Under the pieces are notes generated by a model. It was given only the letters and a program-made list of their open reading frames with translations. It made no database searches and was not told the origin of the DNA. From Patescibacteria group bacterium (lineage in GTDB: Bacteria; Patescibacteriota; UBA1384; GWA2-35-9; JBASTP01), in contig JBASTP010000009.1 in assembly GCA_049274945.1 (NCBI GenBank), forward strand, positions 4,441-68,440: a stretch of 64,000 nt of DNA, read 5' to 3'. This document shows positions 20,254-64,000 of this stretch, piece by piece (position 1 is the first letter of the stretch; each line of letters starts with the position of its first letter). A program made the position numbers and the translations under genes.

Positions 20254-21435
20254 TTAACGCTCGTAGGTTGTGGGTTTCGAGAATGATCCGCTGCCTGAGC
20301 AGCTAGCTTGGGTGAGTTCGACTTGCATGGTGGTGGCGTTCGTTAGCTGGATAAGTAACGATCCGCTGCGGGCGATATTGCCAGAGCCCGGTTGGGCATC
20401 GGTCTGGTAGCAGTACACGGTGCCATCGGGTTTTACCTCACTAAACTCGCGATTGATCGTGCCCTCGTGTTTTGGCATAAACGCAATCTTAGTGGGGCTA
20501 CCAATCACTCCGCCGATCGAAGCAATACCCACTGATGGATCAAAGTTATCGTGAACGAGGGCAATACTTTTATCCCAGTTACCCGGTTGATCAATCAGAT
20601 CGCTGGCTTTTACGCCGGTAATCCAGTCGCCTTGGGCCGTTCCTGGAACGTCCTGGTTCACCTCGCCGCAGCGCGGTTCGATGGTGCGTTTGGTTCGAGA
20701 CGACCCGAGTTTTTCATAGAGTGTGGCTTTAGTGGCTTCGTCAAACAAATCGAGCGGGCACACGAAGTGCAGGGCATCGGAGCGGTAGCGTTTGGGGTTA
20801 GCGTAGGGCTTGCCCGATTGCCGCCGATCAACCGCTTGAATGTCCAGGCCGGTTGCCGTGCCGCCCCCGGCGGTGCCGATGATTTCTCCAGCTTTCATGG
20901 CGTAGTTTAATTGGGCGCGGCAGTAGGTGTAGTCGTCGCCGGGCCGGGGCACCTGGGTATCACACGAGGGCCTCGCGGCTTCAAACGCCGCCTGCAATTG
21001 CGGCGAAATGCTCGTAACGTGGCCAAAGTTTAACCGCACGTCTTTGCACGCGGTAATATCGAGGGCGTAGTCATCGCTCCAAACCGCGCCTTGTTTTTTG
21101 GCGGTATTGTGATTGATCGATTGGACAACAATATCGCCCGGGGCGCGCACGGGCCTATCGTAGGCCGGATCGATGGTGTTGTTTTCTTTAATTACCACGT
21201 AGATGTGGTCGGTGGGGACGGTGTGGTCGGGCGGGCTCAAGTTACCCAGTGGGGTGATCGAAAGAAAATCTGTTGGGGCAATCGGGGAAGCGGTAAACAT
21301 GCCGCCAGGGGCGCACTCTGGCCCACCAATGGTATTTACTAGTTTAGGTGTACGCCGGCGTAGTTCACCGACCACCATCGTAAAAAATACCGCGACCAAG
21401 ATAACAACTAACCCAACGACAATTTTTTTGAGCAT
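20254..21435 (-). CDS. Membrane-anchored/secreted hypothetical protein
   Basis: N-terminal TM MLKKIVVGLVVILVAVFFTMVV; 393 aa, Gly/Thr/Ser-rich extracytoplasmic part; no family recognised. Confidence 0.55.
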   Translation of the reverse strand: MLKKIVVGLVVILVAVFFTMVVGELRRRTPKLVNTIGGPECAPGGMFTASPIAPTDFLSITPLGNLSPPDHTVPTDHIYVVIKENNTIDPAYDRPVRAPGDIVVQSINHNTAKKQGAVWSDDYALDITACKDVRLNFGHVTSISPQLQAAFEAARPSCDTQVPRPGDDYTYCRAQLNYAMKAGEIIGTAGGGTATGLDIQAVDRRQSGKPYANPKRYRSDALHFVCPLDLFDEATKATLYEKLGSSRTKRTIEPRCGEVNQDVPGTAQGDWITGVKASDLIDQPGNWDKSIALVHDNFDPSVGIASIGGVIGSPTKIAFMPKHEGTINREFSEVKPDGTVYCYQTDAQPGSGNIARSGSLLIQLTNATTMQVELTQASCSGSGSFSKPTTYER

Positions 21436-36884: not shown

Positions 36885-36992
36885 CGCCACGACGCCCAAG
36901 CACCTTTACGGTGCTCTTTTTTGTCCTCTCAGGCGTACATAGAGGCGTACATACGATTTTTATCCCGCTCGTCGGGTAAGAAACCCCAAAGA

Positions 36993-37760
36993 CACTTCCG
37001 AAGTGGGAATAGGTTACACATTGGTACATTTTTGACAATTGTTGTATGTTAGACTTATGGCACGCCGAAAAGAAATACTCGCAACCGGAGAAATTTACCA
37101 TGTGTTCAATAGGTCGATAGACAATAAAACTATTTTCAACTCCTCAATAGAGTTAAACCGCTTTTTGAATTTAATAAGGTTCTATGGATGTCTCAGGCCA
37201 ATCCGATTCTCTAAATTAACCGTCCAGCAACGAGAACTAATGATCAAGAAAAACGGTGGCGAGCCAATTGTTGAAATCATCTGTTATTGCTTGATGCCTA
37301 ATCATTTTCACTTATTGCTTAAACAGCTAAATGAAGGAGGCATTACCTCTTTTTTACGAAAAATCAGTGATGGATACAGTCGTTACTTTAATCTCATTCA
37401 TCACCGTGCTGGACCATTATTTCAAAACAATTTTAAAGCAGTCAGAATAGCTACTAACGAACAATTGCTCCATGTTTCTCGATACATTCATCTTAACCCT
37501 CTCACTGCCTATTTAGTTAATAATCTTGACGACTATCGTTGGTCTTCTTACCACGAATATATTAGCAGTAGTGACCTGAGGAATAGTGATTTCACCTGCA
37601 ACAAGAAATTAATTCTGGATCAATTCAAAAAGAAGTCCGGTTATCGAGCATTTGTGTTAGACAATGCGAATTACCAGAAAAAGTTAAAGGAAATCCAATA
37701 TCTTCTTATCGAGAATCCGACATAATTACCGAAGTGACACCTGAAGACACTTCGGAAGTG
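36993..37760 (+). mobile_element. REP-associated tyrosine transposase (RAYT) unit: gene plus flanking CACTTC(C/G)GAAGTG palindromes
   Basis: Palindrome CACTTCCGAAGTG at 36993..37005; hairpin CCGAAGTG-acacctgaaga-CACTTCGG at 37729..37756 immediately after the stop; AT-rich gene. Confidence 0.55.
37039..37725 (+). CDS. IS200/IS605-like Y1 HUH transposase of the RAYT (TnpA-REP) type
   Basis: HUH motif CYCLMPNHFHLLLK and catalytic-Tyr motif SRYIHLNPLTAYLV (compare E. coli RAYT HMHCIW / YIYINPVKHGWV). Confidence 0.8.
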   Translation: MLYVRLMARRKEILATGEIYHVFNRSIDNKTIFNSSIELNRFLNLIRFYGCLRPIRFSKLTVQQRELMIKKNGGEPIVEIICYCLMPNHFHLLLKQLNEGGITSFLRKISDGYSRYFNLIHHRAGPLFQNNFKAVRIATNEQLLHVSRYIHLNPLTAYLVNNLDDYRWSSYHEYISSSDLRNSDFTCNKKLILDQFKKKSGYRAFVLDNANYQKKLKEIQYLLIENPT

Positions 37761-37798
37761 TCCGGAATCACCAGGATCAGCATTCGCGCTTCTGCGGC

Positions 37799-42686: not shown

Positions 42687-42962
42687 ATGAAAACCGCCAA
42701 GTTGCCCTCGTTTTTCCAATCAATTTTTTGGGACACCCGGCTTGCAAATATTGACTACAAAAAACATTCCCGCTATGTGATCGAGCGTGTGCTCCAGTGG
42801 GGCAGGCCCCAGCACGTACGCTGGCTACTCGGCCACTATTCGAAACGCATGATTTTGCATGTGGCAAAAACCGGGCGGGAAGTCCGCCCAGAGCGCAAAT
42901 ATTTCTGGAAGTTCTATTTAACTCACCAACGAAAAAAACGAACAAAATTATATGCACACTGA
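42687..42962 (+). CDS. Small basic hypothetical protein, candidate partner (antitoxin/regulator) of the AbiEii-like gene
   Basis: 91-aa ORF directly upstream of, and overlapping by 11 nt, the AbiEii-like gene; no family recognised; AT-rich. Confidence 0.4.
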   Translation: MKTAKLPSFFQSIFWDTRLANIDYKKHSRYVIERVLQWGRPQHVRWLLGHYSKRMILHVAKTGREVRPERKYFWKFYLTHQRKKRTKLYAH

Positions 42963-43575
42963 AGCGCTTGCTCCAAAAACAAAAAAAGCTTTCGAGCTAC
43001 TTGGAACCGTGGAGATGATCCAACAATTTTATTTGGCAGGTGGTACTGCGGCCGCATTATATCTTGGCCATCGGTCCTCCCACGATCTTGATTTTTTTTC
43101 AACTCAAAGATTTGATTCGGAATTACTAAGACTTGAACTCGAAAAGGTAGGGAATCTTGCAATCGAATTCAAAAAAAAAGATACCTTGCTAGGAAAGTTT
43201 AACGGGGTAAAAATTAGTTTTTTTTATTACCCGTACCCCTTGATTCAACCGTTGGCTTACTTTGACTCAGTTGCTATCACCAATCAAAAAGATATTGCAG
43301 CAATGAAAATTAATGCGATTGCTGGTCGCGGGATTAAACGAGATTTCATTGATCTCTACTCACTCATGGAAGCCAATCATTGGCGATTGATTGAAGTAAT
43401 AGCGTGGTTCATGAAAAAATACAAAAAATCAAATTACAACATGGTGCACGTTCTCAATGCGTTAATTTATTTTGAGGATGCTGACAAAACCCCGATTCCA
43501 AAAATGATCACACCGATTGATTGGGGAAAGATTAAAGAATATTTCCGCGATGCGGTCAAAGAAATTGAACTGTAA
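42952..43575 (+). CDS. AbiEii/AbiGii-family nucleotidyltransferase (type IV toxin-antitoxin toxin-like; DUF1814)
   Basis: FYLAGGTAAALYLGHRSSHDLDFFS matches the family hallmark (GGTAL...R.SxDLDF); strongly AT-rich versus flanks. Confidence 0.7.
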   Translation: MHTEALAPKTKKAFELLGTVEMIQQFYLAGGTAAALYLGHRSSHDLDFFSTQRFDSELLRLELEKVGNLAIEFKKKDTLLGKFNGVKISFFYYPYPLIQPLAYFDSVAITNQKDIAAMKINAIAGRGIKRDFIDLYSLMEANHWRLIEVIAWFMKKYKKSNYNMVHVLNALIYFEDADKTPIPKMITPIDWGKIKEYFRDAVKEIEL

Positions 43576-50074: not shown

Positions 50075-50728
50075 GTGCCAGTCGAGAAAAAGCAAATCTA
50101 TCGGCAACTGGGCGTCGTATCGGTAAAATTATTATTGCTATCGCTCTTTGATGTTGCGGCACTCTTCGGAAGTTTGGATCATAGAAAACGGTATGCTCGA
50201 GCATATGACGAATATTTAACGTGGCGAGCCAAGGATTATCGCCGTTTTTATCGCCTTGTCTATCGTTTAAAAACCGCGGGGCTTATAGCAACGTATCAAG
50301 AAGGTAAACAACGATTCATAGAGTTGACACCCGAAGGAAAGCGAAAAATTGTCCACTACCTTTTTGAAGATGGGAAAGTGCCGTTGCCCAAGTCGTGGGA
50401 CGGTAAATGGCGCGTCGTAGTGTTCGACATACCGGAAAGTCAAAAGCCAGTCCGTGATGCGGTGCGCCAGTTACTCAATCGGGTTGGATTTTACCAACTG
50501 CAGCGGAGTGTTTATATCTATCCTCATGACTGCGTAGGAATTATCCGATACCTCGAACAGATCTATGATATTAACGAATATGTTCAGTTCATGGTTGCCG
50601 AACGGGTAGAAACTGAAGAAGACCTCATTGCTTTATTCCATGATCGGGGGATTATTAAACGAATAGTAAAGCTATCTGGTAAAAATAAATTAGGCAATAA
50701 CGAATCGACATATAGAAACGATCGCTGA
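50075..50728 (+). CDS. PaaX-like winged-helix regulator (Cas2-like C-terminal fold)
   Basis: WDGKWRVVVFDIPESQKPVRDAVRQLLNRVGFYQLQRSVYIYPHD matches the PaaX C-terminal domain. Confidence 0.6.
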   Translation: MPVEKKQIYRQLGVVSVKLLLLSLFDVAALFGSLDHRKRYARAYDEYLTWRAKDYRRFYRLVYRLKTAGLIATYQEGKQRFIELTPEGKRKIVHYLFEDGKVPLPKSWDGKWRVVVFDIPESQKPVRDAVRQLLNRVGFYQLQRSVYIYPHDCVGIIRYLEQIYDINEYVQFMVAERVETEEDLIALFHDRGIIKRIVKLSGKNKLGNNESTYRNDR

Positions 50729-50790: not shown

Positions 50791-52014
50791 ATGGTAGACA
50801 TCAAATTTATCCGAGACAATACTGAGCTAGTCAAGAAAGCACTCGCCAAAAAACATACAGTGTTTGATGTTGAAAAGCTGCTCAAGCTCGATGAGGTCCG
50901 CAAAGCAGCGCTTGCTGAAGTCGAAGCCATCCGCCATAAACTCAACGAAGCTGCCAAGGCTAAAGATCAAAAAGAAGGTAAACTTATCAAAGAAGCCCTC
51001 AAAAAAGCAGAAAGCCGTTTACAGGAAGCAGAGCACGCTTTTAACAATTTGGCAGTTCAATTTCATAACATTCCCCACGAAAGCGTGCCGAGTCAAGATC
51101 AAGGTAACAAGACGGTTGGCACTTGGGGCGCAGAACAGAACTTCGATTTCAAACCAAAAGATCACCTCGAACTTGGCGAGGCGCTCGATCTTATTGATGT
51201 TAAGCGGGCGGCGAAAGTTTCCGGCACGCGGTTTGGTTATCTCAAAAACCAGGCAGTTGAGCTCGAGTTTGCTTTGATACGCTGGGTTTTTGAAAAACTT
51301 ACTAACAAGGGATTTACGCTAATGGTTCCTCCGGTGCTCGTGCGAGAGCAGGCAATGTTTGGCACTGGATTTTTCCCCACGGAAAAAGAAGAATATTACA
51401 AAACTGCCACCGATGATTTGTATCTAGCGGGTACATCAGAGGTGCCGCTCGCTTCCTACCATGCCCAAGAAGTGCTCAATCAAAACTCGCTACCAATGAA
51501 GTATGCGGGGTTCTCAACATCGTTCCGGCGTGAAGCTGGCAGTTATGGCAAGGACACGCGCGGGATCTTTCGAGTTCATCAATTCGATAAAATTGAAATG
51601 TTTGTGTATGCCGATCCCGCTAAATCTTGGGATGAGTTTGAAGCCCTCTCCGAGATCTCAAAAGAAATATTTAGCGAACTCGGGTTGCATTTTCGCCAGG
51701 TGGTAATGAGTGGCGGCGAACTTGGTGCGCCCAATGCCAAAAAATATGATTTTGAGGTTTGGATTCCCTCGTACAACGATTTTCGTGAACTCGCCTCATG
51801 CTCGAATGATACTGATTTTCAGGCGCGTCGGTTGGATATTAAGTTTCGTGACAAATCAGGAAACACTAGCTACGTCCATACGCTAAACAATACCGCCCTG
51901 GCCATCGGCCGCACCCTTGTGGCAATTATTGAACACTATCAGCAAAAAGATGGCTCGGTCAAAGTACCGCAGGTTTTGCATAAGTATCTCTCATTTACTG
52001 AGATCAAAAAGTGA
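50791..52014 (+). CDS. serS: Serine--tRNA ligase
   Basis: N-terminal coiled-coil arm (MVDIKFIRDNTELVKKALAKK...); class II motifs FRREAGSYGKDTRGIFRVHQFDKIE and GELGAPNAKKYDFEVWIP. Confidence 0.9.
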   Translation: MVDIKFIRDNTELVKKALAKKHTVFDVEKLLKLDEVRKAALAEVEAIRHKLNEAAKAKDQKEGKLIKEALKKAESRLQEAEHAFNNLAVQFHNIPHESVPSQDQGNKTVGTWGAEQNFDFKPKDHLELGEALDLIDVKRAAKVSGTRFGYLKNQAVELEFALIRWVFEKLTNKGFTLMVPPVLVREQAMFGTGFFPTEKEEYYKTATDDLYLAGTSEVPLASYHAQEVLNQNSLPMKYAGFSTSFRREAGSYGKDTRGIFRVHQFDKIEMFVYADPAKSWDEFEALSEISKEIFSELGLHFRQVVMSGGELGAPNAKKYDFEVWIPSYNDFRELASCSNDTDFQARRLDIKFRDKSGNTSYVHTLNNTALAIGRTLVAIIEHYQQKDGSVKVPQVLHKYLSFTEIKK

Positions 52015-52343
52015 AAGTTATTATTCACGACAAAAATGTGAAGCTAAGCGGAGCCGATCGCGAGTATTGCGAGCAAAAGTTTTTAAAGTTAGAAAAGTAT
52101 GTTAACGCCGAGCCAACCATAGCCGAAGCCCATTTTGAATCCCAGCGCGGGTTGATTATGTTGCACCTTACCGTTACCCACCCTCATGAAAAAATACCCG
52201 ACCACTTTGACGAACAGGGCCATGGCTCGCGCGAGGTAGTTGATCTTGTGAAAGAACGCGCAGAGGAACACTTGCGTCGTAACCAAGAGCGTGGAAAGTC
52301 CTCCAGATTTCGCCATTTCTGGAGAAGAATTTTTAAGAGATAG
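52011..52343 (+). CDS. hpf: Ribosome hibernation promoting factor (HPF/RaiA family), GTG start
   Basis: MKVIIHDKNVKLSGADREYCEQKFLKLEKY parallels HPF N-termini; 110 aa. Confidence 0.8.
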   Translation: MKVIIHDKNVKLSGADREYCEQKFLKLEKYVNAEPTIAEAHFESQRGLIMLHLTVTHPHEKIPDHFDEQGHGSREVVDLVKERAEEHLRRNQERGKSSRFRHFWRRIFKR

Positions 52344-52390
52344 CCCTCGCAATTTGGCAAGATTTGAGTTAGAATCCGGGATAACGATAG

Positions 52391-55042
52391 ATGAAATTTC
52401 TTGAGCGTATTTTTGGTGATCCCTCACAACGAGTTGTTAAAAGGACTCGATCGGTAGTTGATCGTATCAATGCCCTCGAGCCTGACTACGAGAAATTATC
52501 CGACGCGGAATTGAAGGAACTAACGAGGAAGTTTAAAGAAAGAATAGCTAAGGGCACAACAGCTGATGAGTTGGCTCCGGAGGCTTTTGCTGCCGTGCGC
52601 GAGGCGGCCAAGCGATCAATCGGCCAGCGCCACTACGATGTGCAGCTCACCGGTGGCATGGTGCTCCACCAGGGCAAAATTGCGGAGATGAGAACCGGTG
52701 AGGGTAAAACTCTTGTGGCCACCCTGCCGCTCTACCTTAACTCACTTGCCGGCAAGGGTGTTCACCTGATTACGGTCAACGACTTTTTGGCAAAGTTTCA
52801 TGCCCAGTGGATGGGGCCGATCTATGAGGCCCTGGGTATTACGGTGGGGGCAATCGGACACGAAGCTTCGTTTATCTACCGGGGTGAGCCCCGCGAGACC
52901 GATGATCCCACCTGGCGCAACCTTTGGCCAATCTCACGCAAGGAAGCCTACTTGGCCGACATTACCTATGGCACGAACAACGAGTTTGGCTTCGACTACC
53001 TGCGCGACAATATGGTGTATTCAGCCGAGTCACGGGCACAGCGGCCGTTCCACTACGCCATCGTCGACGAGATTGATTCAATTTTGATTGATGAAGCGCG
53101 GACCCCACTCATCATCTCTGCGCCTGCCGAAGAGTCGGCTTCCTGGTACCAGCGTTTTGCCGAGCTTACCCCCAGGCTGAGGCCTGGAGAGGATGTCGAA
53201 ATCGATGAGAAGCTGCGTTCCACCACACTCACCGACCCTGGTATCAAGAAAATGGAGCAGCTCCTCGGTATGCCTAATCTGTATGATCCGCAACATGTTT
53301 CGATGGTGCACCACTTAGAACAGGCTTTGCGTGCGCAGTTTATGTACCAGAAAGACAAAGACTATGTGGTAAAAGATGGCGAAATCGTGATTGTGGATGA
53401 GTTTACCGGTCGGCTGATGCTCGGGCGGCGCTATTCAGAAGGGTTGCACCAGGCGATCGAGGCAAAGGAAAAAGTCGAGGTGAAACGCGAATCAGATACC
53501 TTGGGCACAATTTCATTCCAAAACCTTTTCCGGCTCTACCCTAAACTTGCTGGCATGACGGGAACCGCTAAGACCGAAGAAGAAGAGTTCTGGCGGATTT
53601 ACGGGCTTGAGGTGGTGGTGATCCCAACCAACCGGCCGATGGTGCGGGTGGATCACCAAGACAAGATTTATAAAACTGAGGAAGCGAAGTTCGCCGCAGT
53701 AGTGGCTGATGTTAAAGAACATTACGAGCAGGGCCAGCCGGTCTTGATCGGCACAATCTCAATTGAAAAAAACGAACAGCTCTCTAAACTCCTCAAACGC
53801 GAGGGTATCAAGCACGAGTTGCTCAACGCCAAAAACCACGAAGGTGAGGCTAAAATTATTGCCCAAGCGGGGCGCAAGGGTGCGGTAACATTGGCCACCA
53901 ACATTGCTGGCCGAGGTGTGGATATTTTACTTGGTGGCACGCCGCCTGGCGAGCAAGCCGCCACCCAAGAAGGCATGGCAACCCTGAGCAAGGATAAACG
54001 GACGATTCAAGATTGGCAGAAAGAGCACGAAGCGGTAGTCGAGGCAGGCGGGCTCCACGTGGTGGGTACCGAACGCCACGAGTCGCGCCGGATCGACAAC
54101 CAGTTGCGCGGCCGTGGCGGCCGGCAGGGCGACCCTGGCTCAAGCCAATTCTACGTTTCAATGGAAGACGATCTGATGCGTATTTTCGGCGGCGATCGGC
54201 TCAAGGCGTTAATGGATCGGCTAAAAGTGCCTGACGATATCCCAATCGAAAACTCGCTCGTTTCGAGCTCCATTGAACAGGCCCAGAAAAAAGTCGAAGG
54301 CCACAACTTCGATATTCGCAAGCACTTGCTCGAGTACGACGATGTTTTGAATAAACACCGCGAAGCGATCTACAAGAAACGCGGTTTTATTCTGGAAGGA
54401 AAAGGTAAGAACGCTGCCGGCGAGCCAATACCGCTCCACGAAGAGATTTTGGAAATCCTTGGTGATGGACGGGGTGAGTACGAGAAAAAATACGAAAAGT
54501 ACGGCGCGCAGCTGATGGACGGTTTGGAACAAACGGTTTACTTGCGGGTGATTGACACGTTTTGGATTGACCACTTGAACTTAATGTCGGATCTGCGCGA
54601 AGGGATCGGCTTGCGAGGCTACGCTCAGCGCGACCCGCTGGTCGAATATAAACAAGAAGCGTATCACCTCTACCAGCGCCTGCTACGTTCGATCGAGGAT
54701 GAAGTGGTAAATATCCTGACGAAGGTCGAAATCGCACCGCAACAAGTACCCCAACCTCAGTCCACGCCACGGCAACCTCAACAAATCCCCACGGCCGAGA
54801 AAATTGTTGAGGTAACACCTCAACCTACTGAGCCGTTAAAACCAGAACCAAAACTCCAGCCCAAGTCCTCAGGCGTAACGGTGACGGTTCGTAAAAAAGG
54901 AGAGAAGTCGATTACTCAATCACTTAATAACTCAGCCACTCAACCACTCTCACAATTACCCTCTGCTATTCCCAAAGTCGGTAGGAACGAGCCCTGTCCA
55001 TGCGGCAGCGGGAAAAAGTTTAAGCGGTGCCACGGCGCCTAA
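52391..55042 (+). CDS. secA: Preprotein translocase ATPase SecA
   Basis: [18 protein letters not shown]...; Walker [15 protein letters not shown]; DEAD-like [19 protein letters not shown]; C-terminal zinc finger [14 protein letters not shown]. Confidence 0.95.
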
Positions 55043-55052
55043 AGTAGCAGCT

Positions 55053-56039
55053 ATGAATCCAATCATTCCCCAAAAATTAAAGAGAGGCGATACCGTTGCA
55101 GTAATTGCTCCTTCTCGTTCTTTGGCAATGATTTCGCAAGAAACCCAAGATATAGCTAATCAGAGATTTGCAGAACTGGGTTTAACACTTGCCTTCGGTA
55201 AACATGTTCAAGAAAGAGACGAATTTGAATCATCAAATATAGAATCTCGTATCCAGGATCTGCACGCAGCTTTCACCGATTCTAATATCAAGGCTATTCT
55301 GACAGTCATCGGCGGTTTTAATTCCAATCAGCTCCTACGATATATTAATTGGGATTTACTTAAAGATAATCCTAAAATTTTTTGTGGCTACTCTGATATT
55401 ACGGTACTGAACAATGCGATCTTTACTAAGACTGGTCTGGTGAGCTATTCTGGGCCTCATTATTCTGCATTCGGAGAAAAGCTTTATCTCGATTACACAC
55501 TCGAATACTTTAAAAAATGTTTGATGTCCGATGAATCGTTTACTATTGAGCCGGCTAAAGATTGGTCTGATGATTTTTGGTGGAAGAATCAAGATGCTAG
55601 GGAACCAATAAAAAATGATGGCTGGCTGGTAATTAACGAAGGAAAAGCAAGCGGCACAATTCTCGGCGGAAATCTTTGTACGTTGAATCTTCTGCAGGGC
55701 ACAGAATATTTCCCATCGCTGGAAAATTCAATCCTCTTTTTAGAGGATGATGAAGAATCAATGCCATATCATTTCGATCGCGATTTGCAGTCAATTATTC
55801 ACTTGCCGGATTTTCCCAAAGTCAAAGGTTTGGTGATTGGCCGCTTCCAAAAAGCCAGCAAGATGAATAGCGAGCTACTCACAAAAATTATCAAAACGAA
55901 AAAAGAACTCGATAGCATCCCAGTGCTCGCATATGTTGATTTTGGCCATACGAGCCCCATGATTACCTTCCCAATCGGCGGAAAATTGGAAATGCAGGCG
56001 AGTGAATCCAGCTCGATCTTGCGAGTGGTAAAACATTAA
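55053..56039 (+). CDS. LD-carboxypeptidase (peptidase S66; LdcA/MccF-like)
   Basis: LKRGDTVAVIAPSRS N-terminus and S66 fold spacing; AT-rich gene. Confidence 0.75.
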   Translation: MNPIIPQKLKRGDTVAVIAPSRSLAMISQETQDIANQRFAELGLTLAFGKHVQERDEFESSNIESRIQDLHAAFTDSNIKAILTVIGGFNSNQLLRYINWDLLKDNPKIFCGYSDITVLNNAIFTKTGLVSYSGPHYSAFGEKLYLDYTLEYFKKCLMSDESFTIEPAKDWSDDFWWKNQDAREPIKNDGWLVINEGKASGTILGGNLCTLNLLQGTEYFPSLENSILFLEDDEESMPYHFDRDLQSIIHLPDFPKVKGLVIGRFQKASKMNSELLTKIIKTKKELDSIPVLAYVDFGHTSPMITFPIGGKLEMQASESSSILRVVKH

Positions 56040-56041
56040 AT

Positions 56042-56542
56042 ATGAAATTTATTTTTACAGTGAAAATTAAAGAAGGTCTAAACTGGATAGTCGCAATCCT
56101 CCGCAAGCACAAAATTCCGTTTCAAATTACAGGTGGGTTAGCTGCAAGGGTATATGGCTCAAAACGGCCGATCAACGATATTGATATAGATATTCCTGAA
56201 GAATATTTTGACCGTATCCTGAAAGATGTAAAACCATATATTATTTTTGGTCCTGCTCACTATCGAGATAAACGTTGGGATTTGCAGCTTCTCACTCTCA
56301 ACTATCATGGACAAGAAATTGATATCGGTGGTGCATATCAAACTAAGATTAATGATGCAAGAACTGGTAAATGGCGTGCGATGCCTAGCGATTTATCAAG
56401 AATAGTTAAGCACGAATTATTCGATATTACTTTGCCAGTTACTAATCCAGAGGATTTGGTAGATTATAAGCGTATGCTAGTAGGTGATCATCAAAAAGAA
56501 GATATCAGCGCTATTCTCAAATTCTTAAGAAAATCAGAATAG
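56042..56542 (+). CDS. Small nucleotidyltransferase of the ANT(2'')/Lnu(A)-like family
   Basis: FQITGGLAARVYGSKRPINDIDIDIPEE parallels ANT(2'')-Ia WIGGGWAIDARLG...HDDIDLTFP and Lnu(A) WLDGGWGVD...HRDIDID. Confidence 0.55.
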   Translation: MKFIFTVKIKEGLNWIVAILRKHKIPFQITGGLAARVYGSKRPINDIDIDIPEEYFDRILKDVKPYIIFGPAHYRDKRWDLQLLTLNYHGQEIDIGGAYQTKINDARTGKWRAMPSDLSRIVKHELFDITLPVTNPEDLVDYKRMLVGDHQKEDISAILKFLRKSE

Positions 56543-56547
56543 AGAAT

Positions 56548-56967
56548 ATGAAACTGGGCCACGTGCATATTAAAGTGCGAGACATTAAGCGAGCAGAAAC
56601 GTTTTATACCAAACTGCTGGGGTTTAAGGTGACGGAGCGATTTGAGGATCAGTATGTCTTCCTCGCCTTTGACAAAGCGCACCATGATTTAGCGCTAAAA
56701 AATGTTGGCGTTGATGCCCCTATTCCATCGCATAATTCGACCGGGCTTTACCACTTTGCATTTGAGGTGGCAAATGAGAATGAACTAAAGGCGCTATATC
56801 AAAAATTGAAACAAAACGGTATAGTGCTTACGCCCGTAGATCATGGCATATCAAAAGCATTTTATTTTTCCGATCCGGATGGTAATGGAATAGAAGTATA
56901 CGTTGATACTCGCCACAAGCGCACCGCGTGGGGCGGAAAAGAACTAGTTTTAGATTTGGAAAATTAG
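56548..56967 (+). CDS. VOC-family protein (glyoxalase / bleomycin-resistance / dioxygenase fold)
   Basis: MKLGHVHIKVRDIKRAETFYTKLLGFKV...YHFAFEV. Confidence 0.8.
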   Translation: MKLGHVHIKVRDIKRAETFYTKLLGFKVTERFEDQYVFLAFDKAHHDLALKNVGVDAPIPSHNSTGLYHFAFEVANENELKALYQKLKQNGIVLTPVDHGISKAFYFSDPDGNGIEVYVDTRHKRTAWGGKELVLDLEN

Positions 56968-57344
56968 CGCTCTAAAAGTTCTTTGATCGCGCCGAAGTAG
57001 TAATCGTCCCAGCCGTTCGCAAAACTTTTTACTTCTTCTTCTGGGAGATCGGTATGAATGAGCTCGACCCGTGTTTTGCCGTTTTCATCGGTAAGTTTGA
57101 TAGTTACCTTAGATGGTTTTTCCCAATCACCGCCAAACCAATCCTGAACCAGCTTTTTGTTTGGTACCACTTCGGTCGTGGTGCCGTGGATATCGCCGCC
57201 CCACAGGCTAAACTTGGTACCCACCTGATCGTTCATCTTCGCTGGCCCGGCACCCCAGCGATCAATAATTTTAGGGGTAACCAGCGCCTGCCACACGCTA
57301 CCAGGCGATGCGGCGATGAGGTAGGTCTTTTTAATCGTCTCCAC
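56964..57344 (-). CDS. SRPBCC-superfamily protein (AHSA1 / activator of Hsp90 ATPase-like)
   Basis: KTYLIAASPGSVWQALVTPKIIDRWGAGP...GWDDYYFGAIKELLE. Confidence 0.75.
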   Translation of the reverse strand: METIKKTYLIAASPGSVWQALVTPKIIDRWGAGPAKMNDQVGTKFSLWGGDIHGTTTEVVPNKKLVQDWFGGDWEKPSKVTIKLTDENGKTRVELIHTDLPEEEVKSFANGWDDYYFGAIKELLER

Positions 57345-57351
57345 TCATGCC

Positions 57352-59652
57352 ATGATAGTACAAAAGCTTGCTATGAGAAAGTATGCCCTCGCGTTAATTC
57401 CATTAGTTGCGATCCTTGCCTTCTGGCAAATCTACAAATTGTACCTTGGGTACGAAGATTTGGCACTGTTTTACATGCTCCAGCACCGGGCCGAGGCGTT
57501 GGCCGAACTTGCCAAGCAGCCGAACTTCAATATCTACCGCCACCATTTTTGGTTAATACCTTGGCAGTTTAAATTGTTCGACTATAATCCATTACCCTAC
57601 TATATAGTTTCGGTACTTACCTACATTGCGTCTGGTTTTATGCTCTATTGGTTTACCCGAAAGCTTGCTTCGCCTAAAAGTGCGCTCGTTGCCGCTGCCG
57701 TTTTTATGAGCGGTTACTTTGGTCTCGAGACTATTTGGTGGAGTGCGTTCAACGGCCATCAAACCTACCTGGTGATTATTTTATTGCTCGCCTCAACCGG
57801 ATTTTTGATTGAGTATGCTCAAAAGGGTAAACTACCAAACTATCTTGTGTCGCTGGTCTTGTTTGCACTTACCGTATTCCTTTTTCAGTTTCGGGCGTTT
57901 TTACTCTTTTTCCCACCGCTGATCACTCTTGGAGTATTCCGTAGGCCCGTCAAGAAGGCGATCTATGAAGCGTTGCCGTTCATCGCCATTTTTGCCCTGG
58001 CAATCGTAAAAGTTGCCGGTTCTGGGGTATCAAATATTAGTCATAGCTCAACATTGCCGATCCTCGACGGCATCAAAGCAGTAGTCGGCAATATTGGAGC
58101 ATCAGTGGTGCCGCTTAGCATATTTCTTAAGGAGGAGCTAGCAATACCGATCTATATTGTTGTTGGGCTAGCGGGAATTGGTTTGCTGGCCAAACAAGCA
58201 AAACGCTCGCAGGCTTGGGCCTGGGTGCTAGGCTATCTCATACTTACATCTGCCGCGACTGCAGGATCAGTCTTCCTGGGCGGCAGCCCAATCCTTGTAT
58301 ATGAAAACTCGGTAAGATTTATCACCCCTATTTTTTTGGGGATCGCGATTGCGATCGGCTTGAGTTACGACCACTTTGGTAAACAAAAATATACTGCCTC
58401 AATCATTTGCGGATTTATAGTGCTTAATGTCATTTTATCGAACTATTATATTGCCACACGATCCAGCCGCCACAGCGAGCTGCGCACCTTTTATATATCG
58501 CTTAAACGCGAGGTGCCTGAGTTGCCAGAAAAAGCCGTGATTCAAATTGGTTTCTTGCGCAATTCGATTGGGTCATTTACCCCAGGTTATGTGGTACCAC
58601 CGGATGCCTATATTGCCGGGCTCTATGGCAAGCACCTTGGAGACGTAAAACTATCAAGATCATTTGATGAATCAATCGAGTATTTGCGCGCTAACAGATT
58701 GAACGAGGATAACTGGTTTTTCTTTAACTACGATCAGGGAAAAATCGAAGATTTATCACCACAATTGCGTGATATTCTGAGGAGTGGCAAGGTGAATGGA
58801 CAACCATCATTCTCACCCGCACTGATTGAACTCGAGGTTCAGGCCAAATTCAAAGAAGCAGATTTTTCCTGCCCGAGCACGGCGAAAATGCTCGGGCAGC
58901 TTCACCTTAAGGCGCTACAACACCAGTGGTTCAAAAACGCGAAAGTGACTACCGTGCCGATGCTCGACGATCATAAACCTGAGCATCTCCTTGATGGTGA
59001 TTATGATACTTCCTGGACAGCGCGCGACTGGAGCCAACCGGTATTCTTCCAAGTAGAACTTCAGGAGCCCATCGCAATCGACGAGGTGCGCTGGCCCGCC
59101 TTGCCCGGCCGTCGGGCAGGGAGAATGCCAACGATATATGACATTGAACTTTCATTGGATGGCCAAACCTGGCGGAAACTTGGTACACCTCCTCTTGATA
59201 CTCCGTCGAAGTTCATTAGGGTAACGATTGATAAAACACTCGATGGGCGCTCGCCTCAAATTGACGAACTTGACATTTTTGAGAGTCCTTCGGACATTAA
59301 GTACGGTGATGACTACAAAGAGTTTGTGGAATTAAAAAAGAAACCCGTTGATTGTTTCCCGGAACTGACCACGGCCGGTAGCCTCCCGCACGCGTACGAT
59401 AGTCAGGTGACCGTTCCGATTCACTGGTTGAGTGAAGCTAATCAAACATTCCGACCGGAGCGAGAAATTAATATAACTATTCCAGCCGATGGCAAAACCC
59501 ATCGCATCAAGCTCCCTTTGAATTTCGGATTGCAGGCGGCTCGGGACCACGAGATCACCAAGATAGAAATAGGAACACCAAATCTCCCGGCCGATGTAGA
59601 ACTAAAAAATTACAAATTAATCTACCCAACTATAGCCGAACTCCTCAAATAA
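57352..59652 (+). CDS. Polytopic membrane protein (GT-C-like glycosyltransferase fold suspected) with C-terminal F5/8 type C (discoidin) domain
   Basis: About 11 predicted TM helices in the first 400 aa; DGDYDTSWTARDWSQPVFFQVELQEPIAIDEVRW matches the discoidin fold. Confidence 0.55.
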   Translation: MIVQKLAMRKYALALIPLVAILAFWQIYKLYLGYEDLALFYMLQHRAEALAELAKQPNFNIYRHHFWLIPWQFKLFDYNPLPYYIVSVLTYIASGFMLYWFTRKLASPKSALVAAAVFMSGYFGLETIWWSAFNGHQTYLVIILLLASTGFLIEYAQKGKLPNYLVSLVLFALTVFLFQFRAFLLFFPPLITLGVFRRPVKKAIYEALPFIAIFALAIVKVAGSGVSNISHSSTLPILDGIKAVVGNIGASVVPLSIFLKEELAIPIYIVVGLAGIGLLAKQAKRSQAWAWVLGYLILTSAATAGSVFLGGSPILVYENSVRFITPIFLGIAIAIGLSYDHFGKQKYTASIICGFIVLNVILSNYYIATRSSRHSELRTFYISLKREVPELPEKAVIQIGFLRNSIGSFTPGYVVPPDAYIAGLYGKHLGDVKLSRSFDESIEYLRANRLNEDNWFFFNYDQGKIEDLSPQLRDILRSGKVNGQPSFSPALIELEVQAKFKEADFSCPSTAKMLGQLHLKALQHQWFKNAKVTTVPMLDDHKPEHLLDGDYDTSWTARDWSQPVFFQVELQEPIAIDEVRWPALPGRRAGRMPTIYDIELSLDGQTWRKLGTPPLDTPSKFIRVTIDKTLDGRSPQIDELDIFESPSDIKYGDDYKEFVELKKKPVDCFPELTTAGSLPHAYDSQVTVPIHWLSEANQTFRPEREINITIPADGKTHRIKLPLNFGLQAARDHEITKIEIGTPNLPADVELKNYKLIYPTIAELLK

Positions 59653-59667
59653 GGGTAAAATATCGCT

Positions 59668-60606
59668 ATGGCACGATACCTGATAACCGGTGCAGCTGGT
59701 TTTGTGGGTGCTAATCTGGTGCGCCTCCTTGTTGGTAAGGGTACCGTTTTTTGCACCACCCATCCCAAAGATAATCTTTGGCGGCTTAATGATATTAAAA
59801 AGAAGATTTCTCTAGTACCACTTGATTTGGCCGATTTTGATGCGGTGCGAAGAGCCGTGAAAACCATAAAGCCAGATTACATCTTCCACCTTGCGGCGTA
59901 CGGCACCTATCCTTCTCAGCGAGACTTCCGAAAAATTTTTAATGCCAATACCTTGGGAACTGCCAATCTGCTAGAAGCGCTCAATCCGTTACCTTATAAA
60001 GCTTTTGTCATGACCGGCTCAAGTTCCGAATATGGTTACAAATCTAAGCCAATGAAGGAATCCGAAGTGCTTCAACCTAATTCGTTCTACTCGGCTACCA
60101 AAGGGGCGGCAACGCTGATTGCGCAAGCTTATGGAGGGGTGGAACGCAAACCTACGGTAATACTGCGGTTGTTCTCGATTTATGGCCCGTGGGAAGAGCC
60201 GGGTCGCTTTATTCCTACTGCGCTCGCAAAATGTCTAAAGGGGAATGTGCTAACGGTCACCAGTGGCAAGGAAGTACGCGATTTTGTATATATTGAGGAT
60301 ACCATCGCTGCACTACTCCTTGCCGCGAAAAAGGCTAACCAGCTTAGAGGGCAAATTTTCAACATCGGTTCAGGCAAACAAATGAAGATTACCGATGCGG
60401 CTAAAAAGATTAGCAAAATTGTTGGAACGGGTGGAAAGATTTCGATTGGCGGTTATCCAAGCCGACCCTGGGATGCTACCACTCGTTGGCAAGCAGATAC
60501 CCGCAAGTCACGGACACTACTTGGTTGGCGTCCAACAAAAAGTTTCGAGCAGGGGATAACAAAAACTGCCGACTGGCTGAAAGACTATATGGATTTATAC
60601 CAATGA
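59668..60606 (+). CDS. NAD-dependent epimerase/dehydratase (extended SDR; UDP-sugar epimerase-like)
   Basis: ITGAAGFVGANLV Rossmann motif; YSATK catalytic YxxxK. Confidence 0.85.
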   Translation: MARYLITGAAGFVGANLVRLLVGKGTVFCTTHPKDNLWRLNDIKKKISLVPLDLADFDAVRRAVKTIKPDYIFHLAAYGTYPSQRDFRKIFNANTLGTANLLEALNPLPYKAFVMTGSSSEYGYKSKPMKESEVLQPNSFYSATKGAATLIAQAYGGVERKPTVILRLFSIYGPWEEPGRFIPTALAKCLKGNVLTVTSGKEVRDFVYIEDTIAALLLAAKKANQLRGQIFNIGSGKQMKITDAAKKISKIVGTGGKISIGGYPSRPWDATTRWQADTRKSRTLLGWRPTKSFEQGITKTADWLKDYMDLYQ

Positions 60607-61412
60607 CTATTACGCAGCTTACTAAATTAACGCGCACGATGCGGCGCGAGATTATCGAGATTTCCCACCAAAACCACGGCAGTCATGTTGGTTCGTCGTT
60701 TTCGATCATCGATATTCTGTCAGCCCTTTATTTTATGGTGATGCGGGTATATCCAAAGCAGCCCTGGCACTCTAACCGAGATCGATTTGTGCTTTCGAAA
60801 GGCCACGCCGCACTGGCACTCTACACCGTACTCGCCCACCGGGGGTTTTTTTCGCCAAAACTGCTCCAAACATTTCTAAAGGATGGCAGCTTGTTGGTTG
60901 GTCATCCAGAGGGTAGAACTCTTCCTGGGGTTGAAGCTACCACTGGCTCGCTCGGCCACGGTTTATCGGTTGCCGACGGCATGGCCTTGGCGGCAAAACG
61001 GAGCGGTAAGCGTAACCGGGTATTTGTGCTCCTGTCCGATGGTGAGTGCGATGAAGGCGAGGTGTGGGAAGCAGCGCTTTTCGCGGCCCACCATAAGCTC
61101 GACAACCTTACCGTGATCATTGACTACAACAAACTTCAGGCGCTTGGCAATACTAATACGGTGCTCGAGCTGGAGCCGTTTGCCAGCAAGTGGGAAAGTT
61201 TTGGATTTTCAGTGCGACAACACGGTGGCCATAACCTGGCAACCCTTACTAAAACTCTTAGCCGGCTGCCGTTTAGGCGCGGTAAACCCTCGGTGCTCAT
61301 CGCTCAAACTACCATGGGTAAAGGGGTGTCCTTTATGGAAGATCAACTGGCTTGGCACTACCTCGAGCCAACCAAGCAGCACCTGGACCGCGCCGAGCAG
61401 GAGTTACAATGA
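60603..61412 (+). CDS. Transketolase, N-terminal (TPP-binding) subunit of a split enzyme
   Basis: HVGSSFSIIDILSALYF, LSKGHAALALYTVLA, GSLGHGLSVADGMALA; start at the ATG at 60603 overlapping the epimerase stop (ATGA). Confidence 0.85.
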   Translation: MTITQLTKLTRTMRREIIEISHQNHGSHVGSSFSIIDILSALYFMVMRVYPKQPWHSNRDRFVLSKGHAALALYTVLAHRGFFSPKLLQTFLKDGSLLVGHPEGRTLPGVEATTGSLGHGLSVADGMALAAKRSGKRNRVFVLLSDGECDEGEVWEAALFAAHHKLDNLTVIIDYNKLQALGNTNTVLELEPFASKWESFGFSVRQHGGHNLATLTKTLSRLPFRRGKPSVLIAQTTMGKGVSFMEDQLAWHYLEPTKQHLDRAEQELQ

Positions 61413-62323
61413 GAAATGATTTACTTGCGCTCCTCATAAAGAAAGTAGCGAGTGATAAGTCCGTGGTGTTCATCGTAGGAGATCTTGGGTTCGGTGTGGT
61501 TGAACCCTTTATGAAGCAGTTTCCCAAACAATTTCTCAATGCCGGGGTAGCGGAAGGTAATATGGTGGGAGTCGCCGCTGGAATGGCGCTCGAAGGATTC
61601 ACCCCGGTTTGCTACACCATTGGTACGTTTATGAGCCTGCGGCCACTTGAACAAATTCGTGATGATGTTTGCGTACGCAATCTGAATGTAAAGTTTATTG
61701 GCATCGGTGCTGGGTACGGTTACTCAATCTATGGCCCAACCCACCACAGCAACGACGATATTGGTGTTTTAAGGAATCTACCGAACATGGTAATTCTTTC
61801 TCCAGCTGATCCCCTGGAGCTTAAGGGGGCCTTTAGGGCAATGTTTAGTTATAAAGGCCCGGTGTATCTTAGATTACCGCGACGTTCGGTTGAACCGGTC
61901 CATGCTAGGCTGCCTCGTTTCAAGCTTGGGGGATCAATTATTGTTAAGCCGGGTAAGGACCGTTTTATCTTTGCTACCGGTACCATGGTTACTAACGCGC
62001 TCGAGGCCGCCAAACACCTTGACGAGCAGGGCAAGCCGACCGGCGTAGTTTCGTTTCCTACGATCAAACCGATCGACCGCAATTTCATTATTAACGTTGC
62101 CAAGCGAGCCAAACTCATTGTGACATTAGAGCCACATAGCATTATCGGTGGTTTAGGTTCCGCGGTTGCTGAAGTACTAGCCGAGGTGCCAACTAAGGGC
62201 TGGTTCAAGCGGTTGGGCTACCCGGATCAGTTTGTCCATGTGTCGGGTTCTGAAAAATACTTGGAAAAAAAATTTGGCCTCGATCCCGCTTCGGTAGCAG
62301 CTCATATTACTAAGCTTTCTTGA
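61409..62323 (+). CDS. Transketolase, C-terminal (pyrimidine-binding) subunit
   Basis: FLNAGVAEGNMVGVAAGMALEG, YGPTHHSNDDIGVLRNLPNM; the ATG at 61409 overlaps the N-subunit stop (ATGA). Confidence 0.85.
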   Translation: MRNDLLALLIKKVASDKSVVFIVGDLGFGVVEPFMKQFPKQFLNAGVAEGNMVGVAAGMALEGFTPVCYTIGTFMSLRPLEQIRDDVCVRNLNVKFIGIGAGYGYSIYGPTHHSNDDIGVLRNLPNMVILSPADPLELKGAFRAMFSYKGPVYLRLPRRSVEPVHARLPRFKLGGSIIVKPGKDRFIFATGTMVTNALEAAKHLDEQGKPTGVVSFPTIKPIDRNFIINVAKRAKLIVTLEPHSIIGGLGSAVAEVLAEVPTKGWFKRLGYPDQFVHVSGSEKYLEKKFGLDPASVAAHITKLS

Positions 62324-63087
62324 TGGAAGAGTTACACTACGACGAAATGAGCCGGCTCGAGGAGTCACACTGGTGGCACCTGGCGCGGCAGCAAATTATT
62401 CCCGATTGGCTCGGCAGACAGCTCGGCGAGCTGGGATTCAAACGCGACTCGAAAATTCTTGATCTTGGCTGCGGCACCGGTAAGATCCTCAACATTCTGA
62501 AGCAATTTGGTGAGACCACCGGACTCGATTCGTCTCATAAGGCAATCGCCTATGCTAAGTCCAAAGGCGCAGGCAAGCTAGTGGTTGGCGATGCTACAAA
62601 ATTGCCCTTCAAAAAAGAGAGTTTTGATGTGGTAAGCGGCATGGAGCTCCTTGAACATATCAAAGATGATTCTGGCGCTCTTAAGGAATGGCGGCGGGTG
62701 CTTAAACCCAACGGTGTGCTTTTTTTAACCTGCCCGGCCTACATGTGGATGTGGGGCCCGGCTGATAAGTTTGCTCATCATGAAAGGCGGTATACCCGCG
62801 GGCAGCTGGTTACCTTACTAAAGCGCAACGGTTTTCGGCCAGTCAGGGCAAGTTACTTTAATACCATACTCTTTCCCGGGGTGGCACTCATTAGGCTTGC
62901 GCGTAAACCGTTTGTTAAGCTCGACACTATGAAAGGTGAAGATCTTGCAAAAGCGTTTGATTTTCATATTGGCCCAAAGTTTTTAGGCCGTTACCTCTAC
63001 TCGCTGTTTTCGCTTGAACGTTATTTGCTGCGCTGGTTTAATCTGCCATTTGGCGTATCGATCATAGTGTTAGCCCAAAAACAATGA
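62320..63087 (+). CDS. Class I SAM-dependent methyltransferase
   Basis: ILDLGCGTGKILNIL motif I; VLKPNGVLFLT. Confidence 0.75.
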   Translation: MMEELHYDEMSRLEESHWWHLARQQIIPDWLGRQLGELGFKRDSKILDLGCGTGKILNILKQFGETTGLDSSHKAIAYAKSKGAGKLVVGDATKLPFKKESFDVVSGMELLEHIKDDSGALKEWRRVLKPNGVLFLTCPAYMWMWGPADKFAHHERRYTRGQLVTLLKRNGFRPVRASYFNTILFPGVALIRLARKPFVKLDTMKGEDLAKAFDFHIGPKFLGRYLYSLFSLERYLLRWFNLPFGVSIIVLAQKQ

Positions 63088-63815
63088 AAGCCATTCGACA
63101 AGCTCAGGCTAAACAACTCTCACTCGTTTTGCCGATTCACAATCACGCTGATTTTGTTGAAAAAGTTATCAAAAAAACCGACCGAGTGCTTGCGGATGCG
63201 GGGTTGGACTTCGAGTTGATTCTTGTTGAAAACGGCTCAACCGATGGAAGTTTAGAGGTTTGCAGGAAACTCGCCCGTGAGAATAAGCGCATTAAACTTT
63301 TGCGAACACAAGCTGGCTACGGCCGCGCTATTATCAAAGGCCTAAAAAATTCGCGGGGAACTATTGTAGGCTATTCCGAAGCAAACGGGCTCATTTATCC
63401 TAATGTTATTCCCTACCTGGTTTGGTTACTGGAAGATAGGCACTGCGATCTTGCTAAGGGGTTGCGAGTCGAACGCGAGAGCACGTTCCGGGCCGTTCAA
63501 TCAAAGATTTACAATGCTCTCGCTAACTTAATGTTTGGGTTATCGCTCAAGGATGCCAACACCTGCCCAAAATTATTTCCCCGTAGCTACCTCAAGGTGT
63601 TTATGCTCGAACATCCCCAGTCATTTATCGATCTGGAAATCATGATTAAGGCAAAAGAGCTGGGGTTAAAAATCTTTGAGGTACCGATTCCCTACCTCGC
63701 CCGGGCCGGCGGCAAATCGCTCACCAATTGGGGTACGGCCTGGCAGTTTATTGCCAACATGGTATCGTGGCGGTTTAGTAAGTTAAGAGTATGGCGAAGC
63801 AAGCTAAAAAAATAA
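63084..63815 (+). CDS. Family 2 glycosyltransferase (DPM1-like)
   Basis: LSLVLPIHNHADFV...LILVENGSTDGS. Confidence 0.8.
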   Translation: MKAIRQAQAKQLSLVLPIHNHADFVEKVIKKTDRVLADAGLDFELILVENGSTDGSLEVCRKLARENKRIKLLRTQAGYGRAIIKGLKNSRGTIVGYSEANGLIYPNVIPYLVWLLEDRHCDLAKGLRVERESTFRAVQSKIYNALANLMFGLSLKDANTCPKLFPRSYLKVFMLEHPQSFIDLEIMIKAKELGLKIFEVPIPYLARAGGKSLTNWGTAWQFIANMVSWRFSKLRVWRSKLKK

Positions 63816-64000
63816 TTACCGTAGCGATCGGTTCAACGAGCCCGGTCAAGCTTAAAGCAACCGAGCTTGCGTTCACCGAAGCTTTCGGAAAAGTTACAGT
63901 GCTAGCAGTTGAAACTAACTCCGGGGTGCGCGATCAGCCGATCACCCGGGCCGAAGCGTTGGAAGGCGCAACCAATCGGGCAAAAGCCGCCCTGCAAAAG
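63790..64000 (+). CDS. Inosine/xanthosine triphosphatase-like (YjjX family), 5' part only; continues past window end
   Basis: KIITVAIGSTSPVKLKATELAFTEAFG...NSGVRDQPITRAEALEGATNRAKAA parallels the YjjX N-terminus. Confidence 0.5.

Follow-up and report, generated by a model that had tools for sequence, protein, structure and literature searches.

Four small genes follow secA in a 64,000-nucleotide stretch of DNA from a Patescibacteria group bacterium (assembly GCA_049274945.1, contig JBASTP010000009.1), and their family names raise the question of whether they form a kit for antibiotic resistance. The whole 64-kb stretch, referred to here as the window, was analyzed through its list of open reading frames (ORFs) and a Pfam scan of its proteins. 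An earlier note had described four consecutive compact genes between secA and a large membrane-protein gene, encoding an S66 peptidase, a nucleotidyltransferase (NTase), a VOC protein and an SRPBCC protein. The ORFs lie exactly where that note had put them, and the family assignments are right, by Pfam for S66, VOC (Glyoxalase) and SRPBCC (AHSA1) and by fold and profile similarity for the NTase. The nearest homologues of SecA, S66, NTase and VOC are labelled Patescibacteria or Berkelbacteria, consistent with the Patescibacteria origin of the host.

We favor, with a probability of roughly 0.6, the reading that genes turn over in a short slot directly 3′ of secA in this Berkelbacteria-like Patescibacterium, and that the region is not one functional module. 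The slot would here hold two exchangeable genes of low GC content, those for S66 and the NTase. The VOC and SRPBCC genes that come after it would be lineage-stable and belong with a downstream cell-envelope glycosylation cluster. The variable genes would be drawn from a pool common to bacteria of the Candidate Phyla Radiation (CPR) and DPANN archaea, with a conserved 32-nt hairpin at their borders, and each of the four products probably works alone.

Gene order behind secA

Informative sibling genomes were found by looking up homologues of S66, VOC and the NTase. In a Berkelbacteria metagenome-assembled genome (MAG; GCA_016196985.1), contig L167 carries greA-lysS-paaX-serS-hpf-secA-S66 as in the window, with identities of 85% for SecA and 88% for both LysS and S66, and stops 12 codons into the NTase. 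A second contig of this MAG, L173, has the end of a different gene, then orf152-orf77, which are low in GC and not in the window, and then VOC (88%), SRPBCC (72%), the membrane protein (78%) and the same downstream genes as the window. Synteny in relatives, which the earlier note had named as grounds for doubting its reading, was therefore found in part, covering S66, the start of the NTase, VOC and SRPBCC. On contig L179, the order is secA-CYTH-cyclase (PF04199)-VOC (77%)-SRPBCC (83%)-membrane protein (92%), with a 556-aa membrane-protein gene between VOC and SRPBCC and 84% identity at the SecA C-terminus. Homology between L179 and the window breaks exactly at the secA stop codon, and S66 and the NTase are not at this position. 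Contig L178 reads CopG-orf-cyclase-MOSC-UDG-VOC (87%). SRPBCC has the same position and orientation in the window, L173 and L179. Judged from these gene orders, S66 and the NTase appear to be exchangeable occupants of a slot behind secA, VOC appears to be lineage-stable, and SRPBCC seems to form a stable backbone together with the glycosylation cluster.

The four genes do not form a unit. In 80 secA loci from other species (SecA identity ≤63%), not one of the four adjoins secA. Likewise, the 6 kb around the NTase at 80 metagenome loci contained neither S66 nor VOC nor SRPBCC. Among the loci searched, there is no co-occurrence outside the immediate lineage.

The NTase itself is found near secA elsewhere, in the orders secA-NUDIX-NTase (69%)-Maf on contig L180, secA-NTase-NUDIX on L105 and secA-deaminase-like-NTase-Maf in Komeilibacteria. 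A homologue stands directly after secA or one gene away on L082 (5625–7083), L105 (38–2912) and L180 (3–1617), in the company of a dCMP-deaminase-like gene, NUDIX or Maf. These companions are not general, as the pattern did not hold across 69 NTase loci. The linkage of NTase and secA may be old in part of the CPR.

Base composition was measured against 55 window genes (mean GC 0.504, standard deviation 0.052). That all four genes are AT-richer than secA, as had been claimed, is literally true, but just S66, NTase and VOC stand out, and SRPBCC sits at the window mean (Table 1). The NTase gene shares the lowest GC of the window with a Y1 transposase gene. The S66 gene of the sibling MAG is likewise low in GC, at 0.387 vs 0.523 for its secA. 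As the further low-GC genes of the window encode the Y1 (IS200-like) transposase, an AbiEii toxin and a 23S-rRNA-intervening-sequence protein, low GC seems to mark accessory or mobile genes in this genome.

The four gene products

The S66 protein matches both Pfam domains of its family (Peptidase_S66 N domain, 113 bits; C domain, 102 bits). A phmmer search of the PDB returned E-values of ~1e-110 for Bacillus anthracis BA_5613 (4e5s/5fd8/5usd) and Listeria Lmo1638 (4h1h/4inj), 5e-52 for B. anthracis MccF (3gjz), 1.7e-40 for Escherichia coli MccF (3tla) and 1e-24 to 1e-26 for LdcA. The NCBIfam equivalog for LdcA (NF008424) gave 121.9 bits and did not reach its cutoff of 378. The protein was aligned with E. 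coli MccF (from plasmid MccC7-H22) and E. coli LdcA. The triad S114/E231/H299 corresponds to S118/E243/H311 of E. coli MccF and is invariant in eight sequences, and the S-to-A mutant entry 4inj (Lmo1638) aligns at the catalytic Ser. W176 aligns with W186 in the insertion loop of E. coli MccF, where E. coli LdcA is gapped. This W186 stacks on the adenine of processed microcin C (PMC8323819).

On this evidence, the peptidase belongs to the MccF clade and is not LdcA-like. The earlier designation "MccF/LdcA-like" thus keeps its first half, through the triad, the Trp loop and the PDB E-values, and loses its second, for which the equivalog cutoff was missed. Like other MccF-clade S66 peptidases, the window protein has full-length similarity, the Ser-Glu-His triad and the Trp insertion loop, and it is encoded by a stand-alone gene, as are many MccF homologues. 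It differs from E. coli MccF in being only 32% identical and in having no mcc cluster seen nearby. Residues N220 and K247 of E. coli MccF, which we take to bind the aspartyl side chain, are replaced by C209 and E235, so the acyl specificity may differ from that of E. coli MccF. The Trp loop suggests as substrate an aminoacyl- or peptidyl-nucleotide-like compound, which would be cut at its amide bond; a murein peptide may be an alternative. For the BA_5613/Lmo1638 subfamily, a literature search brought up no reported substrate. There are thousands of homologues, 67–71% identical across many CPR classes, and most are named LD-carboxypeptidase. Their contexts are unrelated, for example NUDIX/Fic or CYTH/NT5C/Maf. 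Among the four genes, S66 is the sole one with specific features of a known self-immunity enzyme.

The sole Pfam match of the NTase is PF10706, at 19.9 bits and thus below the gathering score of 21; some NTase homologues carry a precomputed match to the same family. A direct sequence search of the PDB with the NTase matched nothing. The NTase family profile, compared to the PDB, found TM1012 (E 2e-6, 135 residues) and LnuA (E 1.8e-3), the latter over the N-terminal 58 residues only, where the motif R-x3-DIDID is common to both. The AlphaFold (AF2) model of the NTase has a pLDDT of 96.4. In a fold search with this model, the two scores obtained for each structure were 0.78–0.82 and 18.6 for TM1012, ~0.65 and 14.7 for MenT1, 0.61 and 13.6 for LnuA, and ~0.65 and 13.2 for ANT(2'')-Ia. 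TM1012, a putative nucleotidyltransferase of Thermotoga maritima (2ewr/2fcl/4hx0), shares with the NTase the D-x-D and a third acidic residue. It differs in that identity is ~20%, a Gln stands at the NTase D50 position and a Glu at the D94 position. A literature search on TM1012 gave nothing of use on its function. LnuA and ANT(2'')-Ia are of comparable size (158–177 aa) and LnuA has the R-x3-D-I-D-I-D motif, but the C-terminal substrate lobe of the NTase follows TM1012. Whole-chain fold and profile similarity therefore describe the modeled protein as a TM1012-like minimal NTase, with LnuA and ANT(2'') as predicted fold relatives no closer than MenT1, a tRNA-modifying toxin.

Alignment of 40 NTase sequences showed G31, G32, R42, D46, D48, D50, W79, D94, Y142, K143 and D154 to be invariant. 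The GG...DxD core that had been ascribed to the NTase is borne out by G31 and G32, D46-I-D48-I-D50 and D94, and the catalytic Asp triad is kept under alignment. Such a catalytic carboxylate triad is common to all active pol-beta NTases and is not specific to ANT(2'')/Lnu. The name ANT(2'')/Lnu-like is apt for the pol-beta fold and for the N-terminal motif of LnuA, but TM1012 is closest and the NCBIfam resistance models found no match on the NTase. The protein is probably a Mg2+-dependent pol-beta-type transferase that nucleotidylates an acceptor, predicted to be a small molecule. It is basic, with an isoelectric point (pI) of 9.2 vs a family median of 5.6.

The NTase has 436 homologues, and the named ones are almost all from Patescibacteria or DPANN archaea. 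Distant homologues (35–38% identity) are on Vibrio, Pseudoalteromonas, Halomonas and Deinococcus replicons, and those of Vibrio bear the RefSeq name "MazG-related protein". On the V. parahaemolyticus plasmid NZ_CP010886.1, a 35%-identical homologue at 3992–4474 is a single cassette in an integron-like array. In this array, an attC-like repeat of ~120 nt (TAACAAA...GGCGTTA) recurs 13 times, ~600 nt apart, and the surrounding cassettes include GNAT and DUF3265. The cassette homologue implies that the NTase family is mobile, and its context does not reveal the substrate. In the viral contigs searched, relatives of S66 or the NTase were not found. BLAST clustering and a Pfam scan of 109 immediate neighbours at 69 loci yielded no partner for the NTase, as none of 130 Pfam families occurred in more than four neighbours. 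PADLOC returned no matches. A MenT/AbiEii toxin-antitoxin reading of the NTase was ruled out by the blank PADLOC result and the lack of a recurrent neighbour, and a general "nucleotide house-cleaning operon" around it was ruled out because the neighbours include no conserved partner.

The VOC protein matches Pfam Glyoxalase with 74.7 bits. Across 32 CPR and DPANN homologues, H5, H7, H45, H46, H69, E73, D98, Y106 and E116 are invariant, and H99 is present in at least 90%. The family profile aligns these invariants to the catalytic-domain motifs of XylE (1mpy), HPCD (1f1r/1q0c) and a thermostable catechol 2,3-dioxygenase (5zsz), in the stretches "aHDvAF", "lHHvsF", "rHGlt" and "iYFfDPsGNrnEvF". 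By comparison with XylE and HPCD, H5, H69 and E116 are presumably the metal ligands, and H46, H99 and Y106 presumably second-sphere residues. These six line up with the HD, HH, HG and YF-DP-GN-E motifs of type I extradiol dioxygenases, from which the VOC protein differs in being one 139-aa domain and not two domains of ~300 aa. The best of the NCBIfam Fos models, Fos_GSH, gave 50.1 bits vs a cutoff of 180, and the others 30–47 vs 171–310. The HpaD and catechol_2_3 models gave 58.9 bits vs cutoffs of 321 and 320, and the glyoxalase models were also far below cutoff. Ble-like_N, a generic beta-alpha-beta-beta-beta module, was matched at 28 bits vs 24.5.

The VOC protein is probably a metalloenzyme with a His-His-Glu site and the build of a catechol extradiol dioxygenase catalytic domain, and it probably cleaves or otherwise changes a catechol- or quinol-type compound. 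The invariant His/His/Glu metal site, together with the catalytic His and Tyr, argues for an enzyme, and a metal-free bleomycin binder appears unlikely. FosA/FosB identity was ruled out, since the curated cutoffs were not reached. The suggestion of a fosfomycin protein is thus not upheld.

SRPBCC matches Pfam AHSA1 (PF08327) at 80.8 bits vs a gathering score of 22.1, over profile positions 2–125 of 125. In the PDB, the human AHSA1 C-domain matches best (1.6e-14) and CalU16 only weakly (6.5e-6). The protein may bind a hydrophobic ligand, as is generic for the family, and nothing found ties it to resistance.

None of the four genes appears, by these comparisons, to qualify as a known antibiotic-resistance gene. 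Three of the four fail every curated resistance test, and one points to other chemistry, that of an extradiol dioxygenase. This counsels caution, in that "resistance-like" Pfam names in CPR genomes are not to be read as a resistome. All four genes are unremarkable representatives of known families within a flexible slot, and the hairpin at the borders of swapped genes is the only mildly new element.

The border hairpin and competing explanations

An imperfect palindrome makes up the final 32 nt of the NTase ORF and ends 5 nt before the VOC start. It is a copy of a lineage-specific hairpin of ~32 nt with the consensus CTATTCTCRAATTCTYAAGAA-N4-GAGAATAG. The motif has three matches in the window, vs a chance expectation of 0.01 per 64 kb; two of these are both strands of the palindrome at the NTase end. 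The third (17/20, 25652–25671, inside alaS) folds no better than shuffles and is probably due to chance. Sibling copies lie at gene borders, namely S66|NTase (L167), before orf152 (L173), two in L178, CYTH|cyclase (L179) and NUDIX|NTase (L180). Their stems show compensatory changes, from C-G to U-A and from A-U to G-C. Compared to shuffles, the fold z-scores are −4.9 to −6.0 for the sibling hairpins and −1.3 for the window copy, which is decayed. A 44-nt stretch of L173 had been considered a remnant of the NTase; this was dropped, as the stretch is better read as a hairpin copy, since the element also stands at unrelated borders. A second, different perfect palindrome, ACTCATATGACTAGTCATATGAGT, lies just 5′ of VOC in L173 (~955–1000) and L178 (~3560–3605) and is not in the window or L179.

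The Y1_Tnp/IS200-like gene of the window (37039–37725, GC 0.361) has the palindrome GACACTTCSGAAGTGTC on both flanks (36991–37006 and 37746–37762) and nowhere else in the window. In this arrangement, the gene looks like a REP-associated or IS200/IS605-type element. A link between the border hairpin and this transposase was ruled out, because the transposase-flanking hairpins are of different sequence. No recombinase or integrase domain was found by Pfam in the window ORFs scanned, four of which have no Pfam match. Candidate roles for the border hairpin are RNA stability or attenuation, operator function and recombination.

Could the hairpin delimit a cassette array, as a recombination or transposition site through which single genes pass in and out after secA, in the manner of integron attC sites or hairpin-dependent Y1-transposase elements? 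It stands at seven gene borders on six contigs of the lineage, always within the variable stretch apart from the one weak match in alaS, and the compensatory changes mark a hairpin rather than a plain sequence motif. In addition, the L180 NTase is flanked on both sides by similar sequences, and gene content differs precisely between hairpins. The region resembles integron cassette arrays in its single promoterless genes of one orientation with imperfect palindromes between them, in gene content that varies among close relatives, and in that an NTase homologue is itself a Vibrio integron cassette. However, no IntI-type integrase was found in the ORFs scanned, attI was not found either, and the only transposase, Y1, has different flanking hairpins. 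The 32-nt element is shorter than an attC site and lacks attC core sites and ends, with just 1–2 hairpins per contig. The S66/NTase border of the window has no hairpin, and the sole border copy in the window is decayed. The sample is small, and the data would look the same if the hairpin acted between genes in RNA stability or attenuation, or as an operator. We therefore regard a cassette array as very unlikely. Its boldest form is a long shot. In it, Patescibacteria would have a cassette-exchange system, not described before and integrase-independent (or trans-acting), that recombines at the hairpin. Genes for one small enzyme each (among them S66, NTase, CYTH, cyclase, NUDIX and CopG) would be exchanged at one fixed position behind secA, out of a pool shared with DPANN archaea.

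Two functional readings were also weighed. A real detoxification kit, in which S66 breaks down microcin-C-like peptidyl nucleotides, a lincosamide or aminoglycoside is the target adenylylated by the NTase, and the VOC protein inactivates or binds fosfomycin or bleomycin to shield an episymbiont from compounds of its host or community, seems unlikely. The MccF triad and adenine-stacking Trp loop of S66, not in LdcA, would fit it, as would the NTase carboxylates, all kept, and the motif common to LnuA. The single Vibrio cassettes adjoin GNAT cassettes, the commonest neighbours of NTase homologues are GNAT, MFS, EamA and MarR/ArsR (still rare), and many low-similarity genes resembling antibiotic-resistance genes are already reported across CPR genomes (PMC8651080). 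Against this stand the curated resistance cutoffs, reached by none of the genes, PF10706 below its gathering score, a fold nearer TM1012 than LnuA or ANT(2'') with MenT1 equally near, and a pI far from the family median. The VOC protein keeps a full extradiol-dioxygenase residue set, for which Fos and bleomycin-binding proteins have no need. The window ORFs scanned included no mcc-type genes, and the four genes do not travel together. What is left of the proposed kit is the MccF features of S66 and the NTase carboxylates; the missed cutoffs, the VOC active site, the lack of co-occurrence, and exchangeable S66 and NTase vs stable VOC and SRPBCC are why we doubt the rest. Housekeeping is likewise improbable, with S66 as an LD-carboxypeptidase for murein-peptide recycling, the NTase working with NUDIX, Maf or deaminase in nucleotide salvage or pool sanitation, and VOC and SRPBCC as general stress proteins. 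It would agree with the naming of most S66 homologues, with the synteny of S66 with core genes in the sibling MAG at core-like identity, with the NTase beside secA in several CPR lineages next to dCMP-deaminase-like, Maf, NUDIX or Ham1-like genes, and with the RefSeq name of the Vibrio homologues. But S66 falls well short of the LdcA cutoff and is far nearer MccF-clade structures, S66 and the NTase are not at this position in L179, and both genes are, like the mobile genes, among the lowest in GC of the window. NUDIX accounts for just 2 of the 109 immediate NTase neighbours, so a link to nucleotide enzymes is not general.

The preferred reading, a turnover slot, has several points against it. 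In three or more other CPR lineages (L082/L087, L105 and L180), the NTase adjoins secA or is separated from it by a single gene, a recurrence that could reflect an old, stable linkage rather than turnover. The identity of the sibling S66 is at core-gene level, which implies that S66 and the NTase were inherited vertically since the split and that turnover is not very fast. The slot is drawn from four sibling contigs, all short, and the sibling MAG assembly is broken between the NTase start and the next contig. Amino-acid composition could partly account for the low GC.

Two modest leads follow from the locus. One is the TM1012-like NTase family, which is well folded and counts ~440 homologues, nearly all of them from CPR and DPANN, with distant relatives in Vibrio integron cassettes. 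The other is the hairpin-punctuated slot after secA, a tractable place to study accessory-gene exchange in ultra-small genomes. Neither overturns current views.

Layout and neighbouring features of the window

Table 1. Features from secA to the downstream membrane-protein gene, with window coordinates, GC content and z-scores
Feature	Coordinates	Strand	GC	z	Basis and remarks
secA	52391–55042	+	0.526		Pfam SecA domains; upstream anchor of the slot
Putative S66 serine carboxypeptidase, MccF clade (BA_5613/Lmo1638 subfamily)	55053–56039	+	0.401	−1.96	328 aa; Pfam, PDB phmmer, alignment
Predicted minimal pol-beta-fold NTase, TM1012-like	56042–56542	+	0.361	−2.72	166 aa; homologues, AF2, family profile
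Border hairpin of ~32 nt, decayed copy	56511–56542	not assigned			Palindrome; covers the last codons and stop of the NTase
Putative single-domain VOC metalloenzyme, extradiol-dioxygenase-type active site	56548–56967	+	0.431	−1.39	139 aa; Pfam Glyoxalase, family invariants
SRPBCC/AHSA1-type small ligand-binding protein	56964–57344	−	0.504	0.0	126 aa; Pfam AHSA1
766-aa membrane protein	57352–59652	+			Pfam: weak PMT_2-like GT-C N-terminus and F5/8 type C domain

The spacers between secA, S66, NTase and VOC are 10, 2 and 5 nt, and the convergent VOC and SRPBCC genes overlap by 4 nt at their ends. A promoter and terminator scan of 51900–59800 found nothing above shuffle expectation. With plus-strand genes 2–10 nt apart and no such signal, the plus-strand genes of the slot are probably read through from secA. 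The SRPBCC gene and the gene for the 766-aa membrane protein are divergent, with start codons just 7 nt apart (57344–57352), and this arrangement is kept in L173 and L179. Such closeness implies either that their promoters lie inside each other's coding regions or that the annotated starts are wrong.

The 766-aa membrane protein anchors the slot on its downstream side, and its gene opens a conserved glycosylation cluster. The genes after it on L173 encode an epimerase, a split transketolase, a methyltransferase and a GT2. Over this stretch, window and L173 DNA run collinear up to window position 64000, where the compared part ends. The epimerase, split transketolase and methyltransferase were confirmed as genes in the window. 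This conserved envelope-glycan cluster occupies 59668–63815, with an NAD-dependent epimerase, the N and C halves of the transketolase as separate genes, the methyltransferase and further genes. The transketolase-N ORF as listed (60486–61412) overlaps the epimerase by ~120 nt, and its true start is probably later.

Elsewhere in the window, four ORFs of 313–392 aa have no Pfam match at E ≤ 1e-4 (1596–2540, 3820–4854, 10980–11930 and 20254–21435). The AbiEii-type nucleotidyltransferase toxin is encoded at 42952–43575 (GC 0.383), and the 23S-rRNA-intervening-sequence (bAvd-like) protein at 6993–7361 (GC 0.393). A PaaX_M protein (Cas2-like middle domain) encoded between lysS and serS (50075–50728, GC 0.434) has 57% identity to the copy in the sibling MAG, vs 74–88% for its neighbours.

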